This document shows, in pieces, positions 3,592 to 60,543 of a DNA stretch of 64,000 nucleotides (positions within the stretch are counted from its first letter, which is position 1; the number at the start of each line of letters is the position of its first letter). The translations under genes and the position numbers were made by a program. Source of the DNA: Chiloscyllium plagiosum (Eukaryota); NCBI RefSeq assembly GCF_004010195.1, contig NC_057749.1, forward strand, positions 5,807,339-5,871,338, read 5' to 3'. The notes beneath the pieces are model-generated. The model searched no databases. It had not been told where the DNA came from and worked only from the letters and a program-made list of their open reading frames with translations.

Positions 3592-4451
3592 TGAAATAAA
3601 TGCACAGAGGCTTGCATCTCATCACTAAGTCACTCTTTATGTCAATGTACACAGTGCATGTACTCTGACCAGCCAGCTCAAATCCATCCTAGACTGAGAG
3701 GCTTTCTCAATCTCCTGTTTATTTTTTTTAATTCCTCCACACTACCGCCCAACTGCAGTAGTGCTTATATTTTCCCCAGCACCCATGTTGTATTTGTGCA
3801 GGTGTGTGACGCAGTGAAAGACACAAGGTGTACAAATCTTTATTCAATTTCCACCACCAAGAAGAAAGAAAACACCCAAGTGGCCAGTGACAAGCAGTGC
3901 CTTTCTCAGAGGGCAATGCTGTGTGATCAAACAGTGAAGGGGAGGGCAGGGATTAAATCAAAATAGAGTTGGAAGGGGAATCTTTTGTTTATTTATTTAT
4001 TTTTCTTATTATTTTAAGTGGCCAGTGACAAGCACTGTCCTTCGCATCAAAGGGCAATGCTGTGTGAATCTCCTGGTTATATTTTTTTTTCCCCACACTA
4101 CCGCCTAACTGCGGTAGTGCTTATTTTTTCCCCAGCACCCATGGTGTGTGTGTGCAGGTGTGAGACACAGTGAGAGACACAAAGTGCACAAATCTTTATT
4201 CAATTTCCACCACCAGGAAGATAGGAAAACACCCGAGTGGCCAGTGACAAGCACTGCCATTCACATCAAAGGGCAGTGCTGTGTGATCAAAACAGTGAAG
4301 GGGAGGGCAGGGATTAAATCAAAATAGAGTTGGAGGGGGAATCTTCTGTTTATATCTGTCAGCCAGGCACCCTGATTGGCCCAGGCTAACAACCCCAATC
4401 AAGGATCTCATAGTCAATGAGATCCACCTGAACCTGAATTCAATCACTATA
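3592..4451 (-). mobile_element. Solo LTR interrupted at its TATA box by stacked retroposon insertions
   Basis: The minus strand shows a CCAAT box (GGCCAATC), GATATAAACAG and a terminal ...TTATTTCA. The right part is homologous to 50985-51086, 59624-59708 and 60268-60420. Confidence 0.65.
3723..4339 (-). mobile_element. Three tandem insertions (3723-3978, 3993-4066, 4081-4339) of a short poly(A)-tailed retroposon, possibly the 3' end of a Tx1-like non-LTR element
   Basis: Each copy is bounded by a roughly 14-bp repeat AATCTCCTGTTTAT (3709, 3979, 4067, 4340). The two long copies have a minus-strand AATAAA, a terminal hairpin CACTACCGC-ctaact-GCGGTAGTG and an A-rich tail. Confidence 0.7.
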
Positions 4452-5149
4452 GATAGATTATTTTGTTAAGCAAAGGAATTGATCAATGGCAGGTATATAG
4501 AGTTAGGCCACAGGTCAGCCATAATCTCATTGAATGACAGAACAGGCCCAAGGGGCTGAATGGCCTATTCTGCTCCTATGACTTGATTGCGCTTGTTCAG
4601 GGACAGATTTTGTTTTGCAGTTTAGTAATAAGCAAAGAAATTCAAAACCTCGCAAACCAAGAGTGTATTTTGGCCCGATCTTAGCAAGATAGCTGATTGG
4701 AGCCAAAGCTGAAATTCTACATCCAAGTGTTAAGAGTGCCTCTTATTAATGACGTAAACCTCTTTTTAAGCGGTGAGATTCAGCCGATAGTCCATCCTTG
4801 ATGAAGCTGTGAGATCTTTTCTTGACTCGTCTTTCTTCTTCCATTGTCTTATATCATCCTGCTTTCATGAGGTCGACACATTTTACAACTTGCTTTGTTG
4901 ACATATGCTGAAGCATTTATTTTGTTAATATTTTGCATTCTGAAAACCTCTCTCAGTATTTGAAGAATTTGGGGAAAGTGTTGGTGTAGTGTTAATGATC
5001 CAGAGGCTCTGGTAATGCTCCAGGGACATGGTTTTGAAACTCACTTGCAATCTATTGGAACTTGAAATGAAACTCACAATCCATGATTGCTATAAAAACC
5101 ACATCTGGTTCATGAACGTTTTGACAATCATACATGAGATCTTTTCAGA

Positions 5150-5478
5150 ATCATAGAATTCCTACAGTGTGGGAGAAAACCATTCGGTCCATCAAGTCCA
5201 CACTAATCCTGTGAAGAGCATCCACCCACACCCATCCCTCTACCCTATCCCTGTAACTCTGTATACCCAAATGCTAAGCCATGTAGCCTGCACATCCCTG
5301 GACATCCTTGGGCAATTTAGCATGGCCAATCCACCTAACCTGCATCCAGTGGAAACCCATGCAGACATAGGGAGAATGTGTAAAGTTCAAACAGATAGTT
5401 GCCTGAGGGTGGAATCAAACTTAGGTCTCTGCTGCTGTGGGGCGGCAATGCTTACCACTGAGCCACCATGCCACCCCA
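5150..5478 (-). mobile_element. HE1-like SINE
   Basis: Reverse-complement head (...ACCACTGAGCCACCATGCCACCCC) and V-domain. Confidence 0.85.
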
Positions 5479-5684
5479 TGGATGGGGGTCTGGAATGCAC
5501 TGCCCAGGAGGGTAGTTGAGGTTGGGAAACTCACAACCTTTTGAAAAGTACTTGGATGAGCACTTGAAATATCATAATCTTCAAGACTAACAAGCCATTT
5601 GGTTCAACAAGTCCACACCTCCAAAGAATAACCCACCCAGACACATTCTCCTACCCTATCACTTTACATTTACCTTTAACTAAC

Positions 5685-5720
5685 ATTCCTGAAGAAGGGC
5701 TTATGCCCGAAACGTCGATT
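5685..5720 (+). ncRNA. Minimal type-I hammerhead ribozyme motif (Penelope-associated)
   Basis: CTGAAGA-A-GGGC-TTAT-GCCC-GAA-ACGT-C: both core boxes, a 4-bp stem II, a palindromic ACGT in place of stem III, and a GUC cleavage triplet. Confidence 0.7.
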
Positions 5721-5777
5721 CTCCTGTTCCCTGGATGCTGCCTGACCTGCTGCGCTTTTCCAGCAACACATTTTCAG
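5686..5777 (+). mobile_element. Penelope-like terminal fragment (family A)
   Basis: 12-bp TSD CTTTAACTAACA (5674-5685 / 5778-5789). Same sequence as the 3' end of the RT-bearing copy at 19798-20846. Confidence 0.85.
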
Positions 5778-6397
5778 CTTTAACTAACACACCTAACCTA
5801 CACAACCCTGAACACTATGGGCAATTTAGCATAGCCAATTCACCTGACTTGCACATCTTTAAAGTGTGGGAGGAAGCCGGTGCACTCGGAGGAAATGCGC
5901 ACGGACACGGAAGAATGGACAAAGTTCACACAGATGGTCATCCAAAGCTGGGATTGAACCAGGGTCCCTGGTGCAGGGAGGCAGCAGTGCTAACCACTGA
6001 ACCACCATGCCACCCCATAAGTGGTGGAGACTGATACAATTACAGTATTTAAAAAAACATCTGGATGAGTTTATAATAGGAAGGGTTCAGAAGAATATGG
6101 GCCAGGTGCTGGTAAATGGGAATACTTCAGAATATCTGTTTCCCTGCTGTACATATCTATGACTCTATGACTATGGGCCATGTGTTATAAAGTGGGACTA
6201 GTGTAGATTTGGCGATACAGACTTGGTGGACCAAAGGACCTCTGCTGCCCTGTATGATTCTATTATTTCATACTCAAGGGGAGCAATGGTCCTCAAGGGG
6301 AGCAATGGTGTATTGGTAGTGTCACTAGGTTAGTAATCCAGAACCCCAGTCTGGTGTTCTGGAGACATAGATTCAAATCCCATCATAGGAAAGTTTG

Positions 6398-17130: not shown

Positions 17131-17730
17131 GGAAATTGTCTACACCTCCCAACAACTTAAAAAGCGAAAATAAATGGTATTTTCAAATATTGCCCTGTTA
17201 ATGTAAACAAACACATCAAGTAGCTGTAATTATTTCTACCTTGCACAGTTAAAGAACAATAACTACAAAACACTGATGTGTCCGTGAGACAATAAAACCC
17301 AAAGCAGACACAGAAATAGCCCATAATATAGAATTATTTTTTACATGGCTATGTCAACATACTGTAGTCTTCACACAAAGACCCATGCTGTGAGTTGTTG
17401 AATTTACCCACTGACAATAATTTCAATATCATTGACTTGGTTAGTACCACCAGGGTTTGTGTCAATGACTGTGAGTAACAACATGAATGGGTTTAGCCCT
17501 GACATGCTGGGAAGAGTCTTGCAGCATCTTTGCAGAACCCACTGTTCATTCTATACCCTTAAACATCTCAAAGGGAAGGCTATGCTAGTGCCTTCATTTT
17601 GTGATGTTTAAGGGCGTGGAACAGTTCTTGTGAGGTGGGACCTCCAGCATATAGAATAGACTTCCCTGGAGGTCTTGCCCATCAACAGCCATTGTTTTCT
17701 TGATTCTCTCATGGGATGTGGGTATCAATG

Positions 17731-17961
17731 AGGAGAAAGTGAGGACTGCAGATGCTGGAGATCAGAGCTGAAAATGTGTTGCTGGAAAAGCGCAGCAGGT
17801 CAGGCAGCATCCAGGGAACAGGAGAATCTATGTTTCGGGCATAAGCCCTTCTTCAGGAAGGGCTTCAAAATTCCTGAAGAAGGGCTTATGCCCGAAACCT
17901 CGATTCTCCTGTTCCCTGGATGCTGCCTGACCTGCTGCGCTTTTCCAGCAACACATTTTCA
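17731..17961. mobile_element. Penelope-like insertion with inverted terminal copies (family A)
   Basis: A minus copy at 17731-17859 and a plus copy at 17871-17961, with a 16-bp TSD GATGTGGGTATCAATG (17715-17730 / 17962-17977). Confidence 0.88.
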
Positions 17962-18469
17962 GATGTGGGTATCAATGGCAAGGTCAATATTTGCAGCCCA
18001 TTTCAAACCCACTATGAACTGAGTGGCTTGGAAGGACATTCCAGAGGGCTGTGAAAAATTACTTACAGTGGTGTGGAATCAAACTGACTCTAAAGGATGT
18101 TCATGAGCCAGATGGGTTTTTACAATGATTGATGATAGTGCCACGGTCACGATTACTGAAACTAGCAGTCAATTCCACATTTGTTCATTGAATTTGAATC
18201 CCATTGGCCACCATGGTGAGACTTGAATCCATGTCCCATAGAGTTAATCTAGGCCTCTGGATTACTAACAAAGCAACATTACTCCAGGGTCTCCTTCTCC
18301 CAGTCAGAGGCTAGAATCTTTTGGGCTCAGCAACACCACTGAGGAAACTATGGTTGCTACAGCAAGGACATGTCCTAAGAGTCCCTCAAAAACAAAGTGA
18401 TCCAAGTCAGTAATGTTGGGGAGGTGGGCCATGCAGTGGGAGTTGGTGTCAAGCACTCATCCAAGAAAC

Positions 18470-19797: not shown

Positions 19798-20846
19798 GAA
19801 AAGAAAGTGAGGACTGCAGATGCTGGAGATCAGAGCTAAAAATGTGTTGCTGGAAAAGCGCAGCAGGTCAGGCAGCATCCAAGGAACAGGAGAATCGACG
19901 TTTTGGGCATAAGCCCTTCTTCAGGAATGAGGAAAGTTTGTCCAGCAGGCTAAGATAAAAGTTAGGGAGGAGGGACTTGGTGGAGGGGCGTTGGAAATGC
20001 GATAGGTGGAAGGAGGTCAAGGTGAGGGCGATAGGCCGGAGTGGGGGTGGGGGCGGAGAGGTCAGGAAGAAGATTGCAGGTTAGGAAGGCGGTGCTGAGT
20101 TCGAGGGATTTGACNNNNNNNNNNNNNNNNNNNNNNNNNNNNNNNNNNNNNNNNNNNNNNNNNNNNNNNNNNNNNNNNNNNNNNNNNNNNNNNNNNNNNN
20201 NNNNNNNNNNNNNNNNNNNNNNNNNNNNNNNNNNNNNNNNNNNNNNNNNNNNNNNNNNNNNNNNNNNNNNNNNNNNNNNNNNNNNNNNNNNNNNNNNNNN
20301 NNNNNNNNNNNNNNNNNNNNNNNNNNNNNNNNNNNNNNNNNNNNNNNNNNNNNNNNNNNNNNNNNNNNNNNNNNNNNNNNNNNNNNNNNNNNNNNNNNNN
20401 NNNNNNNNNNNNNNNNNNNNNNNNNNNNNNNNNNNNNNNNNNNNNNNNNNNNNNNNNNNNNNNNNNNNNNNNNNNNNNNNNNNNNNNNNNNNNNNNNNNN
20501 NNNNNNNNNNNNNNNNNNNNNNNNNNNNNNNNNNNNNNNNNNNNNNNNNNNNNNNNNNNNNNNNNNNNNNNNNNNNNNNNNNNNNNNNNNNNNNNNNNNN
20601 NNNNNNNNNNNNNNNNNNNNNNNNNNNNNNNNNNNNNNNNNNNNNNNNNNNNNNNNNNNNNNNNNNNNNNNNNNNNNNNNTGGGTTGTTCGGTTTTGGAA
20701 CTGGTCCTCCTGGGAGCAGATGCGGCGGAGACAAAGGAATTGGGAATATGGGATGGCATTTTTACAGGGGGTAGGGTGGGAGGAGGTGTAGTCTAGGTAG
20801 CTGTGGGAGTCGGTCGGTTTATAGTAAATGTCTGTGTTAACTGTCT
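19798..20846 (-). mobile_element. 5'-truncated Penelope-like element (RT C-terminal region plus 3' terminal repeat) spanning an assembly gap
   Basis: The peptide TDIYYKPTDSHSYLDYTSSHPTPCKNAIPYSQFLCLRRICS is characteristic of Penelope/Poseidon-type RTs. 15-bp TSD GTTTAATTTTGAGTC (19783-19797 / 20847-20861). Confidence 0.85.
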
Positions 20847-21799: not shown

Positions 21800-22571
21800 G
21801 CCATCGATTTGAGATGCTCTCTTGTAGCCCCCTCCCAGGGACTCCCCCAAAACCTTGCCCCCTTCCCAGTTTGGGGGCCGAGGGTGAACTGTGCAGCCTG
21901 CAGGCTTCAGTCCTGGGCCAATCCCCGTTTAAAAGACAGGGGGAGGGGACACATAGAACACAGACAAAGGTGAGGGGCAGCTTCTATGGCAACCCAATAG
22001 ATCACATTCCCCTATTCAGTAAGCGTATGGGAAACGCAGAGCGCTCTCACGGCAGTTAGCAGCTTTTCTTCGCTGTTACAATGGGGTCTCTGCCGAGGGA
22101 AGGGTTCGAATCCCGCAAAGGATGAAGCCTTCTTGATTGTTATTTTTTTTTTAATTGTTGTTAAATTTCTGCTGGCTTGCCTTTTATTCTCTGCTTTCCA
22201 GTCCAAGGATTCTCCCTGGTTTATTTTTGTTTTGGAGAAGTGGGAGGACTCGCACGCCTTTCTGGGGTTTGCAGACTGCGAAGTCCTGGTGCCTTTTTGA
22301 ACCTCATGGCCGTGGTGGGCGGGTGGGCGAGGGCTCTGAAGAGGAGGGGGGGGGGTAAGCGTCCGGATTTCCAGCGCCCGTCCATACAGGGAAGGGGAGG
22401 GGGGAGGAGAGGGGGAGGTGGGTGGGGAGGGAGAAATCCTCTCTCCGCTCAGTGCATCAGGAGCTAGAGATGTGGCAGGGATCTGAGAGCCCGTGGTCGC
22501 TGTGTCTGTCTGACGGCTGAGCCATATCCACATAGCAAAGGGGGTACCGGGAGGCTCCTAGCCGAGGGGAC
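21800..22571 (+). promoter_or_regulatory. GC-rich HCN4 promoter/5'UTR region
   Basis: Repeat-free, GC- and CpG-enriched, with G-tracts at 22344-22431 directly upstream of the ATG. The TSS cannot be determined from sequence. Confidence 0.6.
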
Positions 22572-23236
22572 ATGGACAAACTGGCTCCTTCTATGCGCAA
22601 GAGACTCTACAGCCTTCCGTCGCCGACCCGGGCCAAAGCTGGGGCAGAGGACGAGGAGAAGGAGGGAGACCCAGAGGCGGCCAGGAGGGGTTTCAAAATG
22701 AGACCCCTGCCTTCTCCCTCCGGAGGGCTGACCAGGGAACCACTGGCCGGAGGGCAGGACAGCAACCTCTTGGAAACCGAGCTCGGGAGGACGGTCAAAG
22801 GCAGCAGCATCAGCAGCAGCACGAACGGGGACTGCCGCCGGTTCCGGGGCAGTCTCGCCTCGGTGACCGGCCGCACGCTCCAGGGAGCCGGGCTGGCCGA
22901 TGACAAGCGCCTGATCGTCGAGGGGGACTCCAGCCCCAGCGAGGACACCAACCCCGGCAGCGAGGGCTCCGAGGCGAGTCCCCAAGCCGAGCCGAGCTCC
23001 GAACCCGAGCCCGGGCTGGCTTTCCTGAAAGTGGACACCGCCGACCAGATCCTGCTGGAGGATGAGCTCCGGGCGAGCCAAGCCGGCTTCATGCAGAGAC
23101 AATTCGGGGCCATGCTCCAGCCGGGAGTCAACAAATTCTCGCTCCGGATGTTTGGGAGCCAGAAAGCAGTAGAGAGGGAGCAGGAGCGAGTCAAATCCGC
23201 CGGCTTCTGGATTATCCACCCTTACAGCGACTTCAG
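22572..23236 (+). CDS. HCN4: Coding exon 1 of potassium/sodium hyperpolarization-activated cyclic nucleotide-gated channel 4 (cytoplasmic N-terminus up to just before S1)
   Basis: The ORF starts [16 protein letters not shown] and contains [36 protein letters not shown] and [53 protein letters not shown], all recognisable from vertebrate HCN4. It ends at TTCAG|GTAA, a phase-2 donor at 23237, which is the conserved HCN exon-1 boundary. Codon usage is GC/CpG-rich. Confidence 0.95.
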
Positions 23237-24210
23237 GTAACCCGCTGTCTCAATGCCCTGAAATCACTTGAAAACAGAAACAAAGTTCATTGCCTTGCCT
23301 TTCAGTCAAGATAAGGCATGTCCCAATTAGATCCCACAAACAGGAGGGAGGTAAAGTTCCAAAGAATGGAGTTGGCACAAGGAGCAGATTTAAAATAGTC
23401 CTTTCTCAGTAGTGTTGAGAGTTTTATTGTATGAAAGCTGCCTTGATAAATAAAGCCAGGTATGAGGATTTGTCCAGCGGCCTGGCAAGATTGGGGATGT
23501 TTGTTTCAATATTATTTATGCAAGTTTTATTTTATGAAATGTGCAGCTTGTGAAAGTTCCTAACTCGGGAGGTACAACTCCACCCTGTTCTTTGCGGGTA
23601 AACACTTTGTTAAACTATTGGCGAACACTCAGAATTCTAACCTTTGCCAATTCGTTCTAGTCATTTTGAAAGTTTGCCTAGAATTTGGTAATGATCGCAA
23701 AATTGCATGTGTCCTTGGTTGTTTGTGTTAACGCACTTCCAACGGGGACTGTAGTTCCCATCCACGTATGCTTATATTTACGTACATTTAATGGTAATGA
23801 CCTGGTTCGTCGGTTTCATCCATCTCCCACACCAGAGATCTCCAGAGATCACCACATCTCCTCTGTGCACCAGAGTTCCCTCCTATACCCATGCAGGGGC
23901 AAAGCGACAAGCAAGGTAGCCCTGTGTAGCTGACAGAGGAGAGGTAGCTGAGAGGCTATGGTGCTCTGTAGTTAGGCAAAATCTGACACATTCCAAACTC
24001 GCCTCTGGGCATGAGAGTTTGGACAAGATCATCCAACAGCTAGTGCTGATAACGCTTCAGGCTCATATGTGTTGGAAACTGCAATGGGGTGTGGGAGGGG
24101 AAGGGGAGGCGGATGGACAAGAGGACTTTTTTAAAAAAAAAACAGTGCGTTCAGGCCAAGAGGATAGGCAGGGCGCGCTCGCCACGAGGAAAAGCGGAAT
24201 TGGTGTGGTG

Positions 24211-25014: not shown

Positions 25015-25212
25015 GCTGGAAATGTGTTGCTGGAAAAGCGCAGCAGGTCAGGCAGCATCCAGGGTACAGGAGAATCGACGTTTCGGGCATAAGGGCTTAT
25101 GCCCGAAACGTCGATTCTCCTGTTCCCTGGATGCTGCCTGACCTGCTGCGCTTTTCCAGCAACACATTTCCAGCTCTGATCTCCAGCATCTGCAGACCTC
25201 ACTTTCTCCTCA
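25015..25212. mobile_element. Penelope-like insertion with inverted termini (family A)
   Basis: Near-perfect inverted repeat of about 78 bp and a 14-bp TSD AAGACTATATCTTG (25001-25014 / 25213-25226). Confidence 0.88.
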
Positions 25213-39984: not shown

Positions 39985-40620
39985 ATACGGAATATGTTGT
40001 ACTTATAGGGGGTGTGCTATATTTACAGTTTGGTGTGCTGTATTTACAGGGGCTATACACTATTTCCAGTAAGATATGCTGTATTTACAGGGATTATGCT
40101 GTATTCATGATAGGATATTCTATATTTACAGGGGCTGTGCTATTTTCACAGTGTGATATGTGTATTTACAGGGATTCTGCTGTATTCACAGTGATATAGG
40201 CTTTATAGGGGCTATGCTGTATTCACAGTAGGATATGCTGCATTTACAGGAGCAATGCTGTATTCACAGTAGGATATGCTGTATATACATGGGCTATGCT
40301 ATTTTCACAGTAGGATATTCTGTATTTATAGGGGCTATGCTATTTTCACTGTGTGATACGTGTATTTACAGGAATTCTGCTTGTATTCACAGTGATATAT
40401 GCTTTATTTTCCGGGCCAAGCTGTATTCATAGTGGGATATGATGCATGTACAGGGCTATGCTGTATTTACAGGCGGAGCTGTTTTGTTTACAAATAGAGA
40501 TGCTGCATTTCCAGAGGTTTTGCTGTTTTCACAGGAGGCAATGCTGAATTGGAGGAGAGGCTGTATTTTGCCAGCTGTGCAGTAACTTTTGCTGGGTGGT
40601 ATGCATTGTGCTGTATTTTG
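39985..40620. repeat. Degenerate ~20-bp minisatellite (GCTGTATTTACAGGG/ATTCACAGTAGGATAT) with a higher-order period
   Basis: Recurrent ATGCTGTATT(T/C)ACAG units. Confidence 0.9.
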
Positions 40621-45405: not shown

Positions 45406-45950
45406 AGGCAAAAAGAAGCCAAGAGAAGGTGGGTTTACCTTCAACCTCTTTCTAACTATTCCTAATCTTTCCTTTGTAATGTGTATTTAACAACCAGGTG
45501 ACCACTCTAGCGGAAGATAATAAATGTTGTATTACTGGCTTTTAACACAAGCCTACTAAACACTGACAGGGAAACAAAATGAAGGGTTCTTTAATGGAGG
45601 ATAGCAGCAGCCCAGGAGACTGTGCTACTATCACTGTTCCACCTACTATTGCACTTGTTAACTTACATCACTTTACATAAAGGTAGTTCTAATATAATGT
45701 GATGGTTGCATTCTTATGCATTATAGAAAAATCACGCTTTAGATACAGCATTTAAAGTCTGGGGGTGGTAATCGCTTTACAGCCAATACATGTTTTTAAA
45801 GTTTGCGCTTTAGAAACAGTGTCCCCACTTCATCAAACACGTTACACCGAATTCACATTAACGAAACAGGCGTAATAGCAGAATGACCTGTGTTTAGCAG
45901 TTTGTCAATCAAGTTAATCTACATGCAATTCAAGACGATATCAGACCAAG

Positions 45951-46085
45951 GAGGAGAAAGTGAGGACTGCAGATGCTGGAGATCAGAGCTTAAAAATGTG
46001 TTGCTGGAAAAGCGCAGCAGGTCAGGCAGCATCAAAGGAGCAGGAGAATCGACATTTCGGGCATAAGCCCTTCTTCAGGAATCTT
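45951..46085 (-). mobile_element. Penelope-like terminal fragment (family A)
   Basis: Imperfect TSD TCAGACCAAG / TCAGATCAAG. Confidence 0.85.
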
Positions 46086-46499: not shown

Positions 46500-47620
46500 C
46501 TGAATGAGAAGGAAGTAATTAATGATGTCCCAAAAGGATCTTTACTGGGGACGAACCATTCTCATGGTATCTATTAATGACTTTGATTCTGATACAATGA
46601 GCCATATATCCACGTACACTGATGGCACACAGATTGATGACATTGTAAGTAGTGTAGACGGAAGTATAAAATTACCAAGAGACATTCATAGAACAAATGA
46701 GACACAGATGAATTTGAAGGAGGTCCTCCAGTTTGGACCAAAAAGAGACAGAACAAAATGATACTTAAATGATAAATGACTAGATCAGTGGAGAAATTTA
46801 AAGATGATATACATATTACCAAAATGCAGTAATCAAGCACAAAGCAACATTGAAAAAGCCTAATATATACCTAATTAAGCAAGTAAATTATGTAATTATT
46901 AACTTGAGAGCTAGAATATAAAAAGGAGAACTGTTACTAGAACTATACAACATCCTATACAACATCTTATATCACATTCCTGATGAAGGGCTTATACACG
47001 AAATGTCGACTCTCCTGCTCCTCGGATGCTGCCTGACCTGCTGTGCTTTTCCAGTGCCACACCTTTCAACTCTAACTCTCCAGCATCTGCAGTCCTCACT
47101 TTCTCCTAGAACAATGCAAAGTCTTAATTAGGCAATGCATTGTATAATTTGGATCTCCACACCTTATAACGGATATATTGGCCTCAAAGGGAAGATTCAA
47201 TAAATATTGTCAGGGGTTCAAGGGTTAGATTATGATGGTTTGATTAAATAAGCAATGCTTTGATTCCTCAGAATATGGAAGGTCAAGCAGCTTTGTGACT
47301 GAGGTTTTCCTCAGTTTAAAAGGAGTTGGGACAGGTGTAGAAAATGTTTTTTTTCCATTAATGGAAAGCCAAGGATAAGTGGACAAAATCCTAAACTCAA
47401 AGTCAGGCCATTTGGGAGAGATGTTAGGAAATATTACTTCATCAAATACTGCAATTCAATACTTGGGTCAATCAGATTTAAATCTGAAACTGTTGAACTT
47501 TTGTCAGCTAAAAGCTTAGAGAGATTTGGAATGAGTGGATACAGCTAGGAAGCAGATCAGTTATGATCTAACTGATTGGCATGATAGATTTTGAGGGCTG
47601 AATGGTACACTTCAGTTCCA
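46500..47620 (+). mobile_element. Very old CR1 RT/3' fragment, interrupted by a Penelope-like fragment (+, 46975-47107)
   Basis: INDFD...STYTDGTQI is a degenerate INDLD...FADDTKI. The insert begins CATTCCTGATGAAGGG. Confidence 0.65.
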
Positions 47621-48158: not shown

Positions 48159-48352
48159 TGAATCTATGGAATTCTCTGCCCCAGAAGGTTCTGAGATGCC
48201 ATTATTGAATACGTCATTATCATAGTCCACTCAGCCCATAGTGCTGCATGGATTCCATTATCTATTGCAAATCTCCTATCTTTACCTAATATTGCTGCAC
48301 ACCATTTCTATCTAAATAGTCACAAATAGTCATCTGATATCCTCTTGAATCC
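48159..48352 (+). repeat. 194-bp direct duplicate of 49471-49664
   Basis: Only two mismatches seen by eye. Confidence 0.92.
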
Positions 48353-48717: not shown

Positions 48718-50613
48718 CGGCTACCTTCAACTTCAAGTTGAAGTTGCTCCATACTTCATGTTGTATCATACTTCAAGTTGCTCCATTTAAGATGGAGTCA
48801 GAGACCTTTGTACCTTCAGGTCACATGACATGATACAATGATTATATCATGTTCTTAAAGGTATACTGCATGCTAACTGTGAAACATACATAGTATATGG
48901 CACTGACAGTGTAACAAAATGTCCCAAGGATATTATCAGTTATTTTATAAAATGACACATAGCCTCATAAGGAAGGATGGGTGGCAAAATGCATAAGTAT
49001 AAAGCTGGGTTTAACTGAGCACCTTAAAGGAGGAGAGAGAGGCGGAGATGCAATGGATTTTTGTAGCTTATTGTCCAAGGCTTTTTTTTTTAGCTTTTTT
49101 GACATTGATTAAAGTGCAGGAACAAAGACAATTTGTGGGAGAATTGTACATGATTTTACTGGAAACATTGCAGTTGTTGGTGTTCATATTAAGAACCGTG
49201 CTTGAAGTGATCTGGTGAAGTTTCACTAAATTAGTCCCTGGGAGGATGGTTGGCCATTGTGATGACAGTTTGAATAATTGGCCTTATATTCGATGGAGTT
49301 CAGAAGAACAAGAGGTGATTTAATTGAAACACAATTGTTTCTGAAGGGGCTTGGTCAGCACTGATGCTCTTTCTGCTGGCTGGGGATTCTGAAACAGGGG
49401 CACAAGATCAATTTAAGGGGCCAATCAATTAGGACGAAGATGAGAAGAAATTTGCTCACTCAAGGGGTTGTGAATCTATGGAATTCTCTGCCCCAGAAGG
49501 TTCTGGGATGCCATTATTGAATACGTCATTATCATAGTCCACTCAGCCCATAGTGCTGCATGGATTCCATTATCTATTGCAAATCTCCTATCTTTACCTA
49601 ATATTGCTGCACACCATTTCTATCCAAATAGTCACAAATAGTCATCTGATATCCTCTTGAATCCCTCAATTGAATGCCACCTCCACCACATTTCCAAGCA
49701 GTGCATTCCAAAAATTTAAGATTATGATAGGCAGATGTTTGGTCTCTTAGAGAAACAAGGGAGTTGGGAAGTTGAGTTGAAGTCCTTGATCAGCTTTTGA
49801 ATATAGAAGCAATATAAAGGGGCTGAATGGTTTACTCCAGCTCCTATTGTGTTGAGGTCTTGCCTTCAAGCTGCTGAAGAGACAGTTACCAATGGTGAGG
49901 CGAAGAAAATGGCAGGGTGTGGTGGTGGGTATATGCCAAAGGGGATGAAACTGAGCGATTAGAGAGATCTCAGGGTGAGGTTCTTGGTGCACAGTGGTCG
50001 TGTGAGCCAAGAGGCCCTGATTCAAGCCCCACCTGTTCTAGAAGTGTGTAATAACATCTCTGAATGGGTTATGTAGAAAATATCCTGAACTAGAGTGAGG
50101 GCTCTGTTGGAAGACGAGAGGAACGTTATTGGTAACAGATCAGGACACGCTAAGTTGTCACCAAAATAGCATCAAAATGATGATAGCTTGTGAGCTGAAC
50201 TTGGCACCGCTTAATAGGAGATGGAATTTAGAATCTGTCGGTAGCTCTACAATAATTGTTTGGACAGTTTCAAAAGCATAATCTCGGAGTAAAGGCATTT
50301 AGGTGAAGCATTATTTTAAATGTTATGGTGGACTGCCATTTCCCATAATCTAGGTTGGTTGTAGCCTTGGCAGAGTAATGCCAAGATAGCAGCTGCTTCA
50401 AAACCAGTGTCAATTGAATCACCTGAGTCATAATTAACATGCCACATCATCCAAATTCATCATCTGCAAATGTGAAAATTCTTGTAAACAATCCAAGTTG
50501 CTTGGACACCCCACAGATGCTGATAGTTGACAAGGTTTTACACAACTTTACATAATTCACAACTATTGGCAGTAAGTAGCAAAATCACCAACCCTAGGTG
50601 GACCAGCATCAGG

Positions 50614-51086
50614 TGTAAAGAGTGCAGTGGCGTCTATTGTTCCTGGCACTAGATTAGTCCCCTCACTAACACAAAATGGAGAGTCCTTCACTGATCCAGC
50701 TCCCTCACGGCCGGTTCGCAGGGTGGGTACAACCTCTGACACTCCTGTTTATGTTTTTGTTTTCTTTCTACTTTTTTACCCTGCACTACCGCCTAACTGC
50801 GGTAGTGCTTATATTGTCCCCAGCACCCATGATGTGTGTGTGCAGGCGTGAGATACAGTGAAAGACAACAGGCGTACAAATCTTTAATCATTTTCCACCA
50901 CCAGGAAGAAAGGAAACACCCGAGTGGCCAGTGACAAGCAGTGCCCTTCTCAAAAGGTAATGCTACTGTGTCTCTGCTGTTTATATCTGTCAGCCAGGGA
51001 TCCCTGATAGGACTGGATTAACAGCCCCAATCAGAGAACTTATATTCAATGAGGTCCACCTGACTGAGCCCGTTACCATCGCTACA
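50614..51086 (-). mobile_element. Solo LTR (related to 3592-4451) interrupted at its TATA box
   Basis: Ends ...ATCGCTACA, with a CCAAT/TATA region homologous to 4350-4451. The left end is approximate. Confidence 0.6.
50753..50971 (-). mobile_element. Fourth copy of the short poly(A)-tailed retroposon
   Basis: Same body as 4081-4285, flanked by CTCCTGTTTAT and CTGCTGTTTAT. Confidence 0.75.
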
Positions 51087-51759
51087 ATGATGATTGTGGT
51101 ATTGTAGTGGGCTAACAAAGAATTGCAGTCTATTTGTGGAAAGGAGTGAGGTGACACAGGAAGAGCAGATACTCAGTGTTATGCATAATTTTGCAAAGAC
51201 AGGATGTGCTATGATTTAGCAGAACAATGAAAACAGTTTGTTTCCAAACTGACAAAAGCCAGAATCCCTGTCAGGATAAAAGAAAAACATTATTTGTGTA
51301 TGAGGGCGTGACCTTTGTTGTCTTCACAACGTTTAGCATTCTGCAGCTAATTTTATCATGAATTACCACAGAATGTCAAATAAAAATGCATACGGAAGTA
51401 AAGGTCATCGCCACTTCTTCCAAGTAATGGAATCTCGCTGGCCCATTAGCTCATTAAATGTTACCTTACAGAAGAAACCTATGGAACATTGGCTTCTTGA
51501 ATACTCATTGAAAGGAACGTGGTCTCGCAGTCAGAGAGATGTTTGGAAGGGCGGAAAAGAAACCTTGACAATTCTTGAAAGGGGAAGCTGAATTGTCTTC
51601 TTGCACAGGATTCATTACCTGCCCTGTTTATAAGTAGTCTGGACTTAGCTATTTAGGAGAACCATATTCAAATTTGCTGCTGGCACCATGTTGGGAGAAG
51701 GACTGAAATTTGTTAAATAGTTTGACTATAATCTAGCACTCACCTCAACGCATACTGAT

Positions 51760-55717: not shown

Positions 55718-56706
55718 TCGAGTCATAGAGCTGTACAACACAGAAGTAGACCCTTTGGTCCAAATCCTAAATATCCCAAATTAATCTAGCCCATTTGGCC
55801 CATATACCTCTGAGCCCTTCCTTTTCAAATACCCATCCAGATGTCTTTTAAATGTTGTAATTGTACCAGTCTCCAACACTTCCTCTGGCAACTCATTCCA
55901 TTCATGCACTATCCTCTGTATGGCGAGGTTTCCCCTTTGGTCTCTTTTAAATCTTTCCCTTCTCACCTTAAACCCATGCCCACTAATGTTGGACTCCCCC
56001 ACCCTGGGGAAAAAAACCTTGTCTATTTACCCTATCCATGCCCCTCATGATTTTATAAACTTCTATCAGTTCGCCCCTCAGCTTCTGACCCCCCAGGGAA
56101 AACAGCCCCAGTCTATTCAGCCTCTCCCTAGAGATCAAACCCTCCAACCCTGGCAACATCCTTGTAAATCTTTTCTGAATCCTTTCAAGTATCACAACAT
56201 CCCTCCTATAGCAGAAAGACCAGAACTGAAAGCAGTATTCCAAAAGTGGCCTAACCAATGTCTTGTATAGCCGCAACATGACATCCCAACTCCTACATTC
56301 AATGCACTGACCAATAAAGACCAGCAGACTGAACACCTTCTTCGCTATCCTGTCTATCTTGAACTCCACTTTCAAGGAACTTTGAACCTGCATTCCAGGG
56401 TCACTTTGTTCAGCAACACTCACCAGGACCTTACAATGAAGTGTATAAGTCCCGCCCTGATTTGCCATTCCAAAATGCAGCACCTAACATTTTTCTAAAT
56501 TAAACTCCATCTGCCACTCCGCAGCCCATTGGCTCATCTGATCAAGTTCCCGTTGTATTCTGAGGTAGCCTTCTTTGCTGTCCATTACAGTTCTAATTTT
56601 GGTGTCATTCGCAAACTTACCAACTGTTCCTCCTATGTTCACATCTAAATCATTTATATAAATGACAAAAAGCAGTGGACCCGGCACTGATCCTTGTAGC
56701 ACATTG
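55718..56706 (-). mobile_element. CR1/HER1 LINE RT C-terminus and 3' end
   Basis: QGSVPGPLLFVIYINDL...KFANDTKI...WQMEFNLEKC and LYKTLVRPLLEYCFQFWS. Confidence 0.92.
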
Positions 56707-57889
56707 CTAAGAAGCTAAAGGGGGTAAGAGATGGGACATGAAATGCCTTCTTGTCAGGTTGTTGAGTCTATTCAAGGCAGGGATTGATAGACTTTTGGGT
56801 ACAAAGGAAATTGTGTTGGTGTCATGTTGTGAATATCCAGTTCATTATTTACATATTTGAGAATATAACTTCTAGTTTTCATAATTAACATTTTAACTAT
56901 AGGAAAATGTTGGGAAATGAAATATAAACAATTCTGATGTAAATGCAACTGAAACAAGCTGATAATGAAGAAAACCCAAACAATGATTTCATGATCTCTA
57001 TTCATTGTAATGGAGCTGGAGTGGTCTTGAGAGGGAGAGAGGGAAATCACATCTGTGAGCAATAAAAACACTGATATGCGTTGCAAGATCAAAGAGTTGT
57101 GTTGAAGATAAAATCATTAATTTGCATTTCTGAATCATCCTGAAGAATGCCACATTATCACAGAAATAGTAATTCAGGGTGGAGCCTTGGTGAGAGGGTC
57201 TTTTGCTCAATTTACCTTTGTGAGTTTTTCGACAATAGCAATCAGAAGGAAGCAGCTGGAGGATTTTTTCTAGCTTGCATCTGGTCGAAGAAATCCGCAG
57301 TGGTGTTCAGAGCCCAGGGCAGAAAGCAGTCAGCTTGAATAACCAGATGGAAAGAGCTGCACGAGCAGACTGGGAGATGGTTAAAACAACAGTCTATGTA
57401 TATTCAAAGCCAGAATAAGGAGCTGAAGAGTTCACTGTCTGGAGCCTTTAAAGAGATCTAAAAACTAATGGAAAATCCCCATATAATTTATAACTTTAAG
57501 GACTAGCTTGTGTACTGAGTAGAATTAAAAACTCTGGAGAGCAATGTTTCCTTCCAGGAAAAGTGAATGAACCTTAAAAAATTCATAAAACGGGATCCTT
57601 GGGGATGATGTGTGAGACGAGGGTAATAGTGTAACTGAGTACTTCACAATAAATACTCACTATTAATAATATAGGGTTATCATTAATAGCTCTTACTTTG
57701 ATTGATTTTGTTTTAATGGTCCAATAAAGTTTGTGTTTGTCAAAATAGCATTAGCCCCTGTTGTATTGTTCTGCCAGTTAACTGCTGGGTATTGGGATTT
57801 CCTCTTTAAACAGGAATAGTTTTAAATATTCAGGACATAATAACAGAACAATGAAGTTGGTGTAAAAGGTTAGTTGCGACCTTAATTTT

Positions 57890-59545
57890 TTAAATTCATT
57901 CATGGGATGTGAGAGCCCCACATGCTGGGCCAACATTTATTGCCCATCCCTAGCTGCTCCTGAGGAGGTGGTGGTGAGCTGCCTTCTTGAACCGCTGCAG
58001 GCAATTTGGTGTAGATAGATCATTGGAGAAGGAGGACCAAGATTTTGACAGCATGGAAATGAAGGTACAATGATATATTTCCAAGTCAGGATGGTGAGTG
58101 GCTTGGATGGGAACTTACAAGTGGTGGTGTTTATATGTATCTGCCACCCTTGTCCTTCTAGATGATTGTGGTTGTGGATTAGGAAGATCCTGTCTAACAA
58201 AACATGGTGAATTCCTGCAGTGCATCTTGTAGATGGTACCCATTGCTGCTAGTGAGCAATGGTGGTGGTGGCAGGAGTGAATATTTATGGTTGCTGTGCC
58301 AATGAAGCAGGCTGATTTCTCCTGGATGGTATCAAGCTTCTTCCATGTTGTTGGATCTGTGCTCAGAAGGTGCTAAGGAGTATTCCATCACACTCGTGTG
58401 TTGTGTTTTGTAGATACTGGAGAGGTTTTGGGAGTCAGGTGATAAGCTATTTGGTGCAAGAATCCTAGTCTTCAATCTGCTCTTGTAGTCACTGTACTTA
58501 CTTAGCTAGTCCAGTTCAGTTTTTGGTCAACTGTAACTCCTAGATTTTTAATAGTGGGGAATTCAGTGAAGATGGTGTCATTGAATCTTAAGGGGTGATG
58601 ATTAAATTCTCTCTTTTTGGAGATTATCATTGCCAGCACTTGTGTGGTCTGAATGGTACTTACCACTTGTCAGCCCAAACCTGGTATTGTCCAGGTTTTG
58701 CTGCATTGAACATGGACTTCTTCAATATCCGAGGAGTCATAAATAGTGTTGGACATTTTGTAGTCGTCAGTGAACATCCCTAATTCTGGTGTTCCGATGG
58801 AGGGAAGGCCATTGATGAAGCAGCTGAAGCTTGTTGGGTTTAAGACACCAACCTGAGGAACTCCTGGGACAGGGATGACTGATGTCCACCACTACCTTCC
58901 TTTGTGCTATCTTGGAGTCTAACCAGCAAAGAGTTTTCTCCGAAAACCCATTGACTCTAGATTTTCCAGGACTCCTTGATGTCACACTCAGTCAAATGGG
59001 CAGCAGTGGTTAGCACTGCTGCCTCACACACCAGGGTCCAAGGTTCGATTCCAGCCTCAGGCGGCCGTCTGTGTGGTGTTTACACATTCTCCCTGTGTCT
59101 GCGTGGGTTTCCTCCGGGTGCTCCAGGGTTTCCGCCCACAGTCCAAAGATGTGCAGGTGAATTGGCCATGCTAAATTGCCCATAGTGTTAGGTGTATTAG
59201 TCAGAGGGAAATGGGTCTGGGTGGGTTACTCTTTGGAGGGTTGGTGTGGACTTGTTGGGCCAAAGGGACAGCTTGGACAGCAAGTTTCATTGTTAGTGTT
59301 GTTGTCTTTTAGATGAAAAGTTAGAGGCCGAGGCCTTGAATGCTCTGTAGGGGATCTAAAAACTTAATGTCAAAGGCCGTCATTCTCACTTCACCTCTGG
59401 AGCTCAGCTCTTTTGTCCATGTTTCACCTAAGACTGTAATGAGGTCAGGAGCTCAGTGGCCATGGTTGAACTCAAACTGAGTGTCAGTGAGCAGGTTACG
59501 GTTTGTAAGTGATAGCACTGTTGATGATTCCTTCCATCCCTTTAC
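57890..59545 (-). mobile_element. Old CR1/L2-group LINE interrupted by an HE1-like SINE (+, 58997-59268)
   Basis: The minus strand at about 58796-58867 reads PGVPQVGVLNPTSFSCFINGLPSI, a degenerate RT GVPQGSVLGP..F..FINDL motif. Confidence 0.75.
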
Positions 59546-60543
59546 TGAATGGTGGAATGGGATCAAAAGGCTGAATACCCTACAACAAATTATGTTTTCA
59601 GATTGCTATACTTATACAAATATGTCAGCCAGGGCTCCCTGATTGGCTCAGGTTAACAATCAAGGATCTTTTGTCAATAAGATCCACCTGGCCCTGGCTC
59701 CAATCACAGAATTGCATTTCAAACAAGATGATTAAGTGGCTGCAAAGTATCATTTAGACATTCTAAGGATGTGAATGTTGCTATACAAATGCCAGGCCAA
59801 GTCCAAAAGGAAGCTAGATTGTGCTATGGTCTGGAAAGCCAGGGTGAAGGATGGAACTGCTTTAGCATAGTCGTTTTGTCACCTTGGATCGATGGCTCAG
59901 AGATAGTTGGGAATATTATAAGTTTAATATCATTTTTATAAGCAAACATACAGTATCACTGATGCACATTTGAAGACACCTCAGTTGTCTTCAATTATAT
60001 GCAGATGGAAGGTAGTTTTGAGCTTTTACTTGAGCAAAAATGAAATTACAGTGGGGTTGAGCTCTGAGATGTAAGCATGTACAAATAAATACATATACAA
60101 TAGGTTTAATGTTGGATCCAGTTCTATCCTTCACCTTGGCTTTCCAGACCAGCACTGTCTAGCTTCCTTTATGACTTTGCCTTGCATTTGTATAGCAACT
60201 TTCACATCCTTAGAATGTCTAAATAACACTTTACAGCCACTTAATCATTTTGTTTAAAATGCAATGCTGTGATTGGAGCTAGGGCCAGGTGGACCTTATT
60301 GACTATGAGATCCTTGATTGTGGTTGTTAACTTGGGCCAATCAGGGAGCCTGGCTGACTGGTATAAACAGGAGTCTCAGAAGGTCTCCTTAGTTTAGGAA
60401 CTGGCTCTGAGCTGGTTGGTCTGATTAGTTATCTTGGATAACTAATGGTAAGGTCAGCAGAAGAGAGAGTATTCAAGGCCTCGTCCTCTAACTTTTCATC
60501 TAAAAGACAACAACACTAACAATGAGACTTGCCATCCAAGCTG
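59269..60543. repeat. Nested inverted duplication
   Basis: Outer arms 59269-59346 / 60466-60543 and inner arms 59624-59859 / 60119-60358. Confidence 0.88.
60268..60421 (+). mobile_element. LTR fragment of the 3592/50614 family with an uninterrupted TATA site
   Basis: GGCCAATCAGGGAGCCTGGCTGACTGGTATAAACAGGAG is continuous here. Confidence 0.7.

Follow-up and report, generated by a model that had tools for sequence, protein, structure and literature searches.

Elements of the Tx group, which falls within the L1 clade, are described as target-specific (PMC3747384), and the targets recorded for early-branched elements and for the Tx1 and R1 clades include transposons (PMC4640811). Tx1-8_Crp and Tx1-4_AMi are crocodilian LINEs of the Tx1 clade that have been reported to insert into specific LTR retrotransposons (Kojima 2015, PMC4494074); the element described below is like them in targeting LTR elements, although its host is a shark and theirs are crocodilians. 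The same source describes SINEU-3 copies stacked around a duplication in Mariner-N4, where hitchhiking was tested with 5'-truncated copies and transcription from the target was proposed (PMC4494074). Both SINEU-3 and Tx1-Mar in Mariner-N4_AMi have, as here, a poly(A) tail and tandem copies that sandwich the target duplication, which is 16 bp there; their target, however, is a DNA transposon, and the SINEU head is that of U1/U2 snRNA, whereas the shark insert has no small-RNA head (PMC4494074). Tx1L of Xenopus laevis likewise occupies one fixed site within another transposon, Tx1D, and has a sequence-specific APE endonuclease (PMC4494074, PMC1950540), but its target is a DNA transposon of the piggyBac type, and the enzyme has been assayed for Tx1L whereas we infer one for the shark element. 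R2, in 28S rDNA, and Keno, in U2 genes, are comparable in having a multicopy transcribed target and in the possible use of its promoter (PMC4494074, PMC4640811). The targets of these two are essential host RNA genes, whereas the shark target is a dispensable repeat. R2, moreover, uses a restriction-like endonuclease.

The insert that we describe in this shark appears to work like the Tx1 elements of crocodilians and frogs, its membership of the Tx1 clade being putative. A literature search covering sources other than Repbase Reports and subscription journals, where the family may already be catalogued, returned no paper on it. The evidence comes from a window of 64 kb, i.e. the whole stretch of DNA analysed, and from public sequencing runs aligned to its positions 50300-51400, which consist of raw reads from organism A and of contigs from organisms B (two runs) and C.

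The insert, its target and its host repeat

The locus at 50614-51086 is an LTR-like repeat on the minus strand, 241 bp long once the insert is taken out, which looks like a solo LTR and which we take to be that of a Gypsy-type retrotransposon. It has TG...CA ends (TG at 51086, CA at 50614) and a putative promoter box, TATAAA, at 50985-50980, which adjoins the point where the insert splits the repeat. The insert, also read on the minus strand, is a poly(A)-tailed, 5'-truncated retroposon end of 218 bp at 50753-50970, lying between two copies of a 14-bp target. On the plus strand the order is host, ACACTCCTGTTTAT (50739-50752), T-rich tract (50753-50777), body (50778-50970), TCTCTGCTGTTTAT (50971-50984), ATCTGTCAGCCAGG and host again. 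The parts of this locus, and an empty relative of the host, are as follows.

50614..50738, minus strand: host LTR-like repeat, part downstream of the target, ending ...TTTACA at 50614
50739..50752, minus strand: target site duplication, downstream copy (plus strand ACACTCCTGTTTAT), 13 of 14 letters identical to the single copy at 60363-60376
50753..50777, minus strand: decayed poly(A) tail, T-rich on the plus strand
50778..50970, minus strand: insert body, the putative 3' untranslated end of a LINE-type retroposon, 5'-truncated
50783..50808, minus strand: hairpin with a 10-bp stem and a 6-nt loop, directly before the tail
50971..50984, minus strand: target site duplication, upstream copy (plus strand TCTCTGCTGTTTAT), decayed, 11 of 14 letters identical to 50739-50752
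50980..50985, minus strand: TATAAA box of the host, predicted to act in its promoter, first T 15 nt upstream of the insert
50985..51086, minus strand: host LTR-like repeat, promoter part, beginning TGTAG at 51086
60269..60430, plus strand: empty host LTR with a single target copy at 60363-60376, which stands for the pre-insertion state

The initial annotation had bounded the insert by flanks of 11 letters, CTCCTGTTTAT at 50742-50752 and CTGCTGTTTAT at 50974-50984, the latter followed by ATCTGTCAGCCAGG as at 4354. The element and its flanks proved to be real, but the duplication is 14 bp rather than 11, and the insert proper is 50753-50970. A longer duplication (19 bp with 15 matches, by inspection) was set aside, since 14 bp better fits the cluster described below and the read joints; this length is within the ~10-20 bp typical of the Tx1 clade, and the empty LTR has one copy. 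The upstream duplication at 50971-50984 is equally close to its own host and to the cluster target (11/14 each) and is too decayed to discriminate between them. At 50976 the letter is C in 107/126 and 85/106 reads, so that the G found there in the window is mostly private.

The 50614 end of the host was placed by its CA dinucleotide and by its likeness to the end of the cluster host at 3592 (by inspection), while at the TG end the contig loose ends at 51062/51067 are uniform up to ...CACTACA and variable beyond. No duplication of 4-6 bp flanks the LTR at 50614-51086 (TCAGG / ATGAT), an old copy with one end placed by inspection, and in the same check on the cluster host, where the copies are likewise old, the flanks AATAA / GATAG match at 3/5 letters. 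No internal region adjoining any host LTR copy was found in the window. The empty LTR lies in a local inverted duplication at 59269-60543, where 59269-59346 pairs with 60543-60466 (94%) and 59624-59859 with 60358-60119 (87%), and which bears the promoter arm of the host LTR twice. Its second host copy, at 59620-59707, was dropped as another empty site, being the inverted duplicate of the 60269 copy and having no target 11-mer.

Another LTR, 47 kb away, has three further copies of the insert stacked at this site, at 3709-4353; this second host starts with TA, one change from TG.

3592..3708, minus strand: downstream part of the second (cluster) host LTR, which is of another subtype
3709..4353, minus strand: three stacked inserts, namely copy A (3723-3978), the short middle copy (3993-4066) and copy C (4081-4339)
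3709, 3979, 4067 and 4340, minus strand: starts of the four 14-bp target copies separating the cluster inserts, each beginning AATCT
4314..4339, minus strand: head of copy C (in copy A, 3953-3978), seven codons PSNSILI and then TAA
4354..4451, minus strand: second host LTR (cluster), promoter part

That the same body sits at the same LTR position in the same orientation and between the same flanks, as had been claimed, is borne out by three results. The body is 87-88% identical to the copies at 3740-3920 and 4084-4280, which have the same orientation relative to their host. The 19-mer across the junction, with at most 3 mismatches, occurs three times in the window (4346, 50977 and 60352-60370 on the minus strand) against 0.03 expected, and 0/100 shuffles reach three. 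Finally, nhmmer found four copies of the insert in the window, all of which (4/4, at 2/2 loci) lie at the same target with a tail and a 14-bp duplication. The duplication tracks its host, as AATCT opens it in 4/4 cluster copies and ACACTC at the read joints.

Several other repeats and one gene surround these loci. An exon at 22536-23240 shares 96% identity with an HCN channel of Chiloscyllium and 91% with HCN4 of the whale shark, which places the window in a carpet shark; it represents the first coding exon of an HCN4-type channel, with the cluster ~18 kb upstream and the insert at 50753-50970 ~27 kb downstream; the latter would probably lie in intron 1 of this gene. Two segments 1.3 kb apart, 48159-48352 and 49471-49664, form a 194-bp direct repeat (99% identical) that is either a recent duplication or an assembly effect, and a 41-bp minisatellite of ~12 copies occupies 39992-40472. 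At 17729-17962, 25015-25212, 19802-19929, 45947-46085 and 46974-47107 there are young repeats of 130-230 bp that are in part palindromic, are 85-98% alike and resemble miniature inverted-repeat elements.

Identity of the insert family

The insert family is abundant. In 1,934 million letters, the read depth on the insert body is ~5,000-6,000 as against 0 on the unique flanks, which corresponds to ~9,000-16,000 copies if a genome of 3-5 Gb is assumed. Pattern scans of viral contigs, metagenomes and prokaryote genomes gave zero matches to the repeat, as expected for shark repeats. The 3' end is fixed: a T tract is present at 4/4 window copies, and a clean T run marks the tail end of family copies in 1936 reads. 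Truncation at the 5' side is variable: the window copies have two different 5' ends, and the contigs have at least four others. The middle copy is shortened on the 3' side as well. All ten pairs of the hairpin at 50783-50808 are preserved in 3/3 copies, with two one-sided changes and zero compensatory ones, and with three copies covariation is uninformative. In contigs of organism B, loose ends at 50952 (X5) and 50964 (X7) continue the insert in the 5' direction in forms unlike the majority form of organism A, which suggests several related subfamilies with a common 3' end.

The head of the longer copies reads as the last codons and the stop of a LINE ORF2, probably followed by the 3' UTR. The open frame there amounts to 11 aa, and the lone substitution between copies A and C in the PSNSILI head is synonymous. 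We take this head with its TAA to be the end of a LINE ORF2, which presumably resembles the ORF2 ends of shark Tx1-type elements, and on this reading the insert is probably the 3' UTR of a target-specific LINE of the Tx1/L1 clade. No ORF2 with APE endonuclease and reverse transcriptase is attached to any of the four window copies; in 243 window frames scanned against Pfam there were only unrelated endonuclease and reverse transcriptase fragments of LINEs, at 1023-1619 and 56487-56714 (minus), which are unlinked to the insert and which we assume to be CR1-like. Pfam matches below the cut-off (OSK, ABM, TcA_RBD, DUF7044) were weak and were taken as chance. Protein searches with a 74-aa frame after the stop gave 0 matches among 6 candidates and no relevant protein, one match to an unrelated repeat protein being put down to chance. 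As to a small-RNA head, ARAGORN found 0 genes and Rfam 0 matches at the gathering score, with four chance-level matches far below it; a classical SINE, with a head derived from a small RNA, is rejected on these results.

It is unlikely, in our judgement, that the insert is instead a short non-autonomous element with fixed 5' ends (~260 and ~200 nt), which would be mobilised in trans and might use the TATA box of its host for transcription. Such an element would account for the 5' end shared by copies A and C and for the other one shared by 50753-50970 and the middle copy, and it is consistent with the lack of a tRNA or other small-RNA head and with the sense orientation of the insert 15 nt past the TATA box. 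Against it, the contigs contain many other 5' breakpoints and the sequence of the head reads as an ORF terminus; both 5' ends may also be stalling points, a hairpin lying at the shorter one.

Target preference and proposed insertion mechanism

We consider it very probable that the insert stems from an abundant LINE, of which it is the 3' end. This LINE most likely belongs to the Tx1 branch of the L1 clade and would use target-primed reverse transcription to enter a single site in a family of LTRs; the tail, the 14-bp duplication and the 5' truncation are the marks of this process. A first-strand nick would fall between 50984 and 50985 on the template strand, within the TATA box (5'-...CTGTTTAT/ATCTG-3'), and the T-rich 3' end at the nick would prime on the poly(A) tail. 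Reverse transcription would then halt early, leaving a 5'-truncated copy, and a second nick 14 bp away would give rise to the 14-bp duplication. As the TATA-side target would stay intact after each insertion, later copies could stack at the same spot. The insert at 50753-50970 would be one such event, into an LTR subtype unlike that at 3592-4451.

Within the window, 4/4 copies at 2/2 loci lie at the target. The published criterion for target specificity is one repeat in >20% of flanks (PMC4494074), and the loose ends of the aligned sequences cover 30 letters. The motif TTTAT has 249 sites in the window, and random insertion would place 0.007-0.11 copies genome-wide on the exact site. The L1 endonuclease has the consensus 5'-TTTT/AA-3', and that of Tx1L is sequence-specific (PMC1950540). 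The predicted nick, TTTAT/AT, resembles the L1 consensus, which is one point in favour of a looser behaviour: a loosely targeted L1-clade LINE might insert widely at T-rich sites, with the TATA region of the LTR holding a minority of its copies and the insertion still being independent. The depth of the insert, about twice that of the host (6057 vs 2782), likewise fits a less than strict specificity, and reads aligned to 50300-51400 reveal only joints to the host at 50614-51086. We nevertheless regard loose targeting as quite unlikely, since all four window copies lie at this site as against the 249 TTTAT sites available, and since stacking and diverged host subtypes could account for the depth ratio.

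Target-primed insertion at a preferred site also bears on the order of the stacked copies, of which the newest would be the one nearest the TATA box. Copy C has the majority letters of the family: three loose-end motifs are found in C only, and C fits the majority loose ends. Copy A and 50753-50970 have in common a 3-nt gap and a G at sites where C is like the middle copy, although one CpG site contradicts this division. Copies A and C, though neighbours, thus appear to descend from separate masters, which is what sequential insertion would predict. On the other hand, A and C have a common 5' end and a near-identical head (1/53 vs 18/186 differences, p=0.08), and given these, local copying within the cluster is possible. 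The insert at 50753-50970 and the middle copy end at one point yet differ at the diagnostic gap and G sites, which suggests a recurrent stop at the shorter 5' end, where a hairpin sits. A head-to-tail joint, 50949->50784, is present in 53 reads with 43 starts. In the middle copy (3993-4066) the final ~130 nt of the element are missing, and the hairpin with them, although a T-rich tail and a duplication of its own are present; its short 3' end reflects internal tailing or a later deletion.

Independence of the insertion and its significance

We are confident that 50753-50970 is a real and independent insertion. Its 5' end, at ...GCTACTGTG, lies ~55-60 bp short of that of the two long copies, and this difference, together with the letters that separate it from the middle copy, argues for independence. 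The initial annotation had based a separate insertion on two observations, both of which are accurate. The left part of the host differs clearly from 3592-3708, as 28/66 aligned letters differ over the left 70 bp of the two hosts and their local alignment is at shuffle level (194/500 shuffles as good); this part of the argument holds. Truncation within 1-2 nt of the end of the middle copy is also real, but a truncation point common to both does not by itself argue for independence.

Copying of a filled LTR should have left host and insert equally diverged, and the divergence found is unequal. The right (promoter) arms of the two hosts differ at 23/98 positions, while 50753-50970 differs from copy A at 22/180 (Fisher p=0.018) and from copy C at 19/180; on the best-conserved 77 bp alone (14/77) the excess of host divergence is not significant (p=0.24, 0.11). 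The cluster host is nearer to the empty LTR at 60269-60430 (right 8/77, left 22/67) than to the host at 50614-51086 (14/77, 28/66). In addition, 1114/14,558 aligned reads pass from the promoter arm into an uninterrupted LTR consensus ending ...CTCTGACACTC, like the host at 50614-51086 (agreement 0.64). Both host types therefore have empty relatives.

At least four other breakpoints, 50804, 50846, 50853 and 50927, connect the insert to this site in contigs of organisms B and C, with an ACACTC-type duplication; 50806, 50822, 50911 and 50918 do so less clearly. These were drawn from the joints listed (15 of 183, and 12 of 261 rows of in-between letters), whose sides are short (21-32 letters) and among which the alignment reveals only joints to the host at 50614-51086. 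The joint 50810->50979 was discarded as a breakpoint, its in-between letters resembling the tail of another copy. No empty orthologue of 50753-50970 was seen, the contigs of organisms B and C also being filled. Since these contigs continue from the unique flank into the insert (X5 record 1, 50300-50813; X8 record 17, 50345-50846; an X7 piece ends at 50696), the insertion is older than the split of the three related shark species; the right-hand flank pieces diverge by 2-3% (10/392, 7/346, 13/419).

That a single ancestral insertion was amplified with the LTR retrotransposon, 50753-50970 being a descendant minus ~60 bp at its 5' end, would suit a site from which the insert could be copied along with the LTR, the similar age of the insert at both loci (10-12% between copies) and the non-significant host excess on the conserved 77 bp, but is very improbable given that an empty LTR is nearer to the cluster host than is the host at 50614-51086, that empty LTRs of the latter type are common in reads, that several distinct 5' breakpoints each adjoin the duplication, and that a later deletion would have had to end exactly at the duplication. 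Taken as a whole, then, a target-preferring LINE, probably of Tx1 type, is in our estimation the likely source of a real independent insertion.

The principle that site-specific LINEs use other transposons as safe landing sites is already known in frogs and crocodilians; the present family extends it to a shark, and its target is precisely mapped. With ~10,000 copies, plentiful filled and empty targets, and host subtypes that differ beside the cut, it provides a good natural data set, suited to learning which bases a Tx1-type endonuclease reads, a matter relevant to site-specific gene insertion. As the target lies at a TATA box, the borrowing of a promoter can also be tested directly. It is possible, though doubtful, that the target was picked for its promoter, with truncated promoter-less copies being transcribed from the LTR and re-mobilised in trans, a cycle that would account for the recurring 5' ends. 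If this were true, the inserted poly(A) end would also shorten the LTR element's own transcript, and one retrotransposon would be exploiting and disabling the promoter of another class in thousands of copies.
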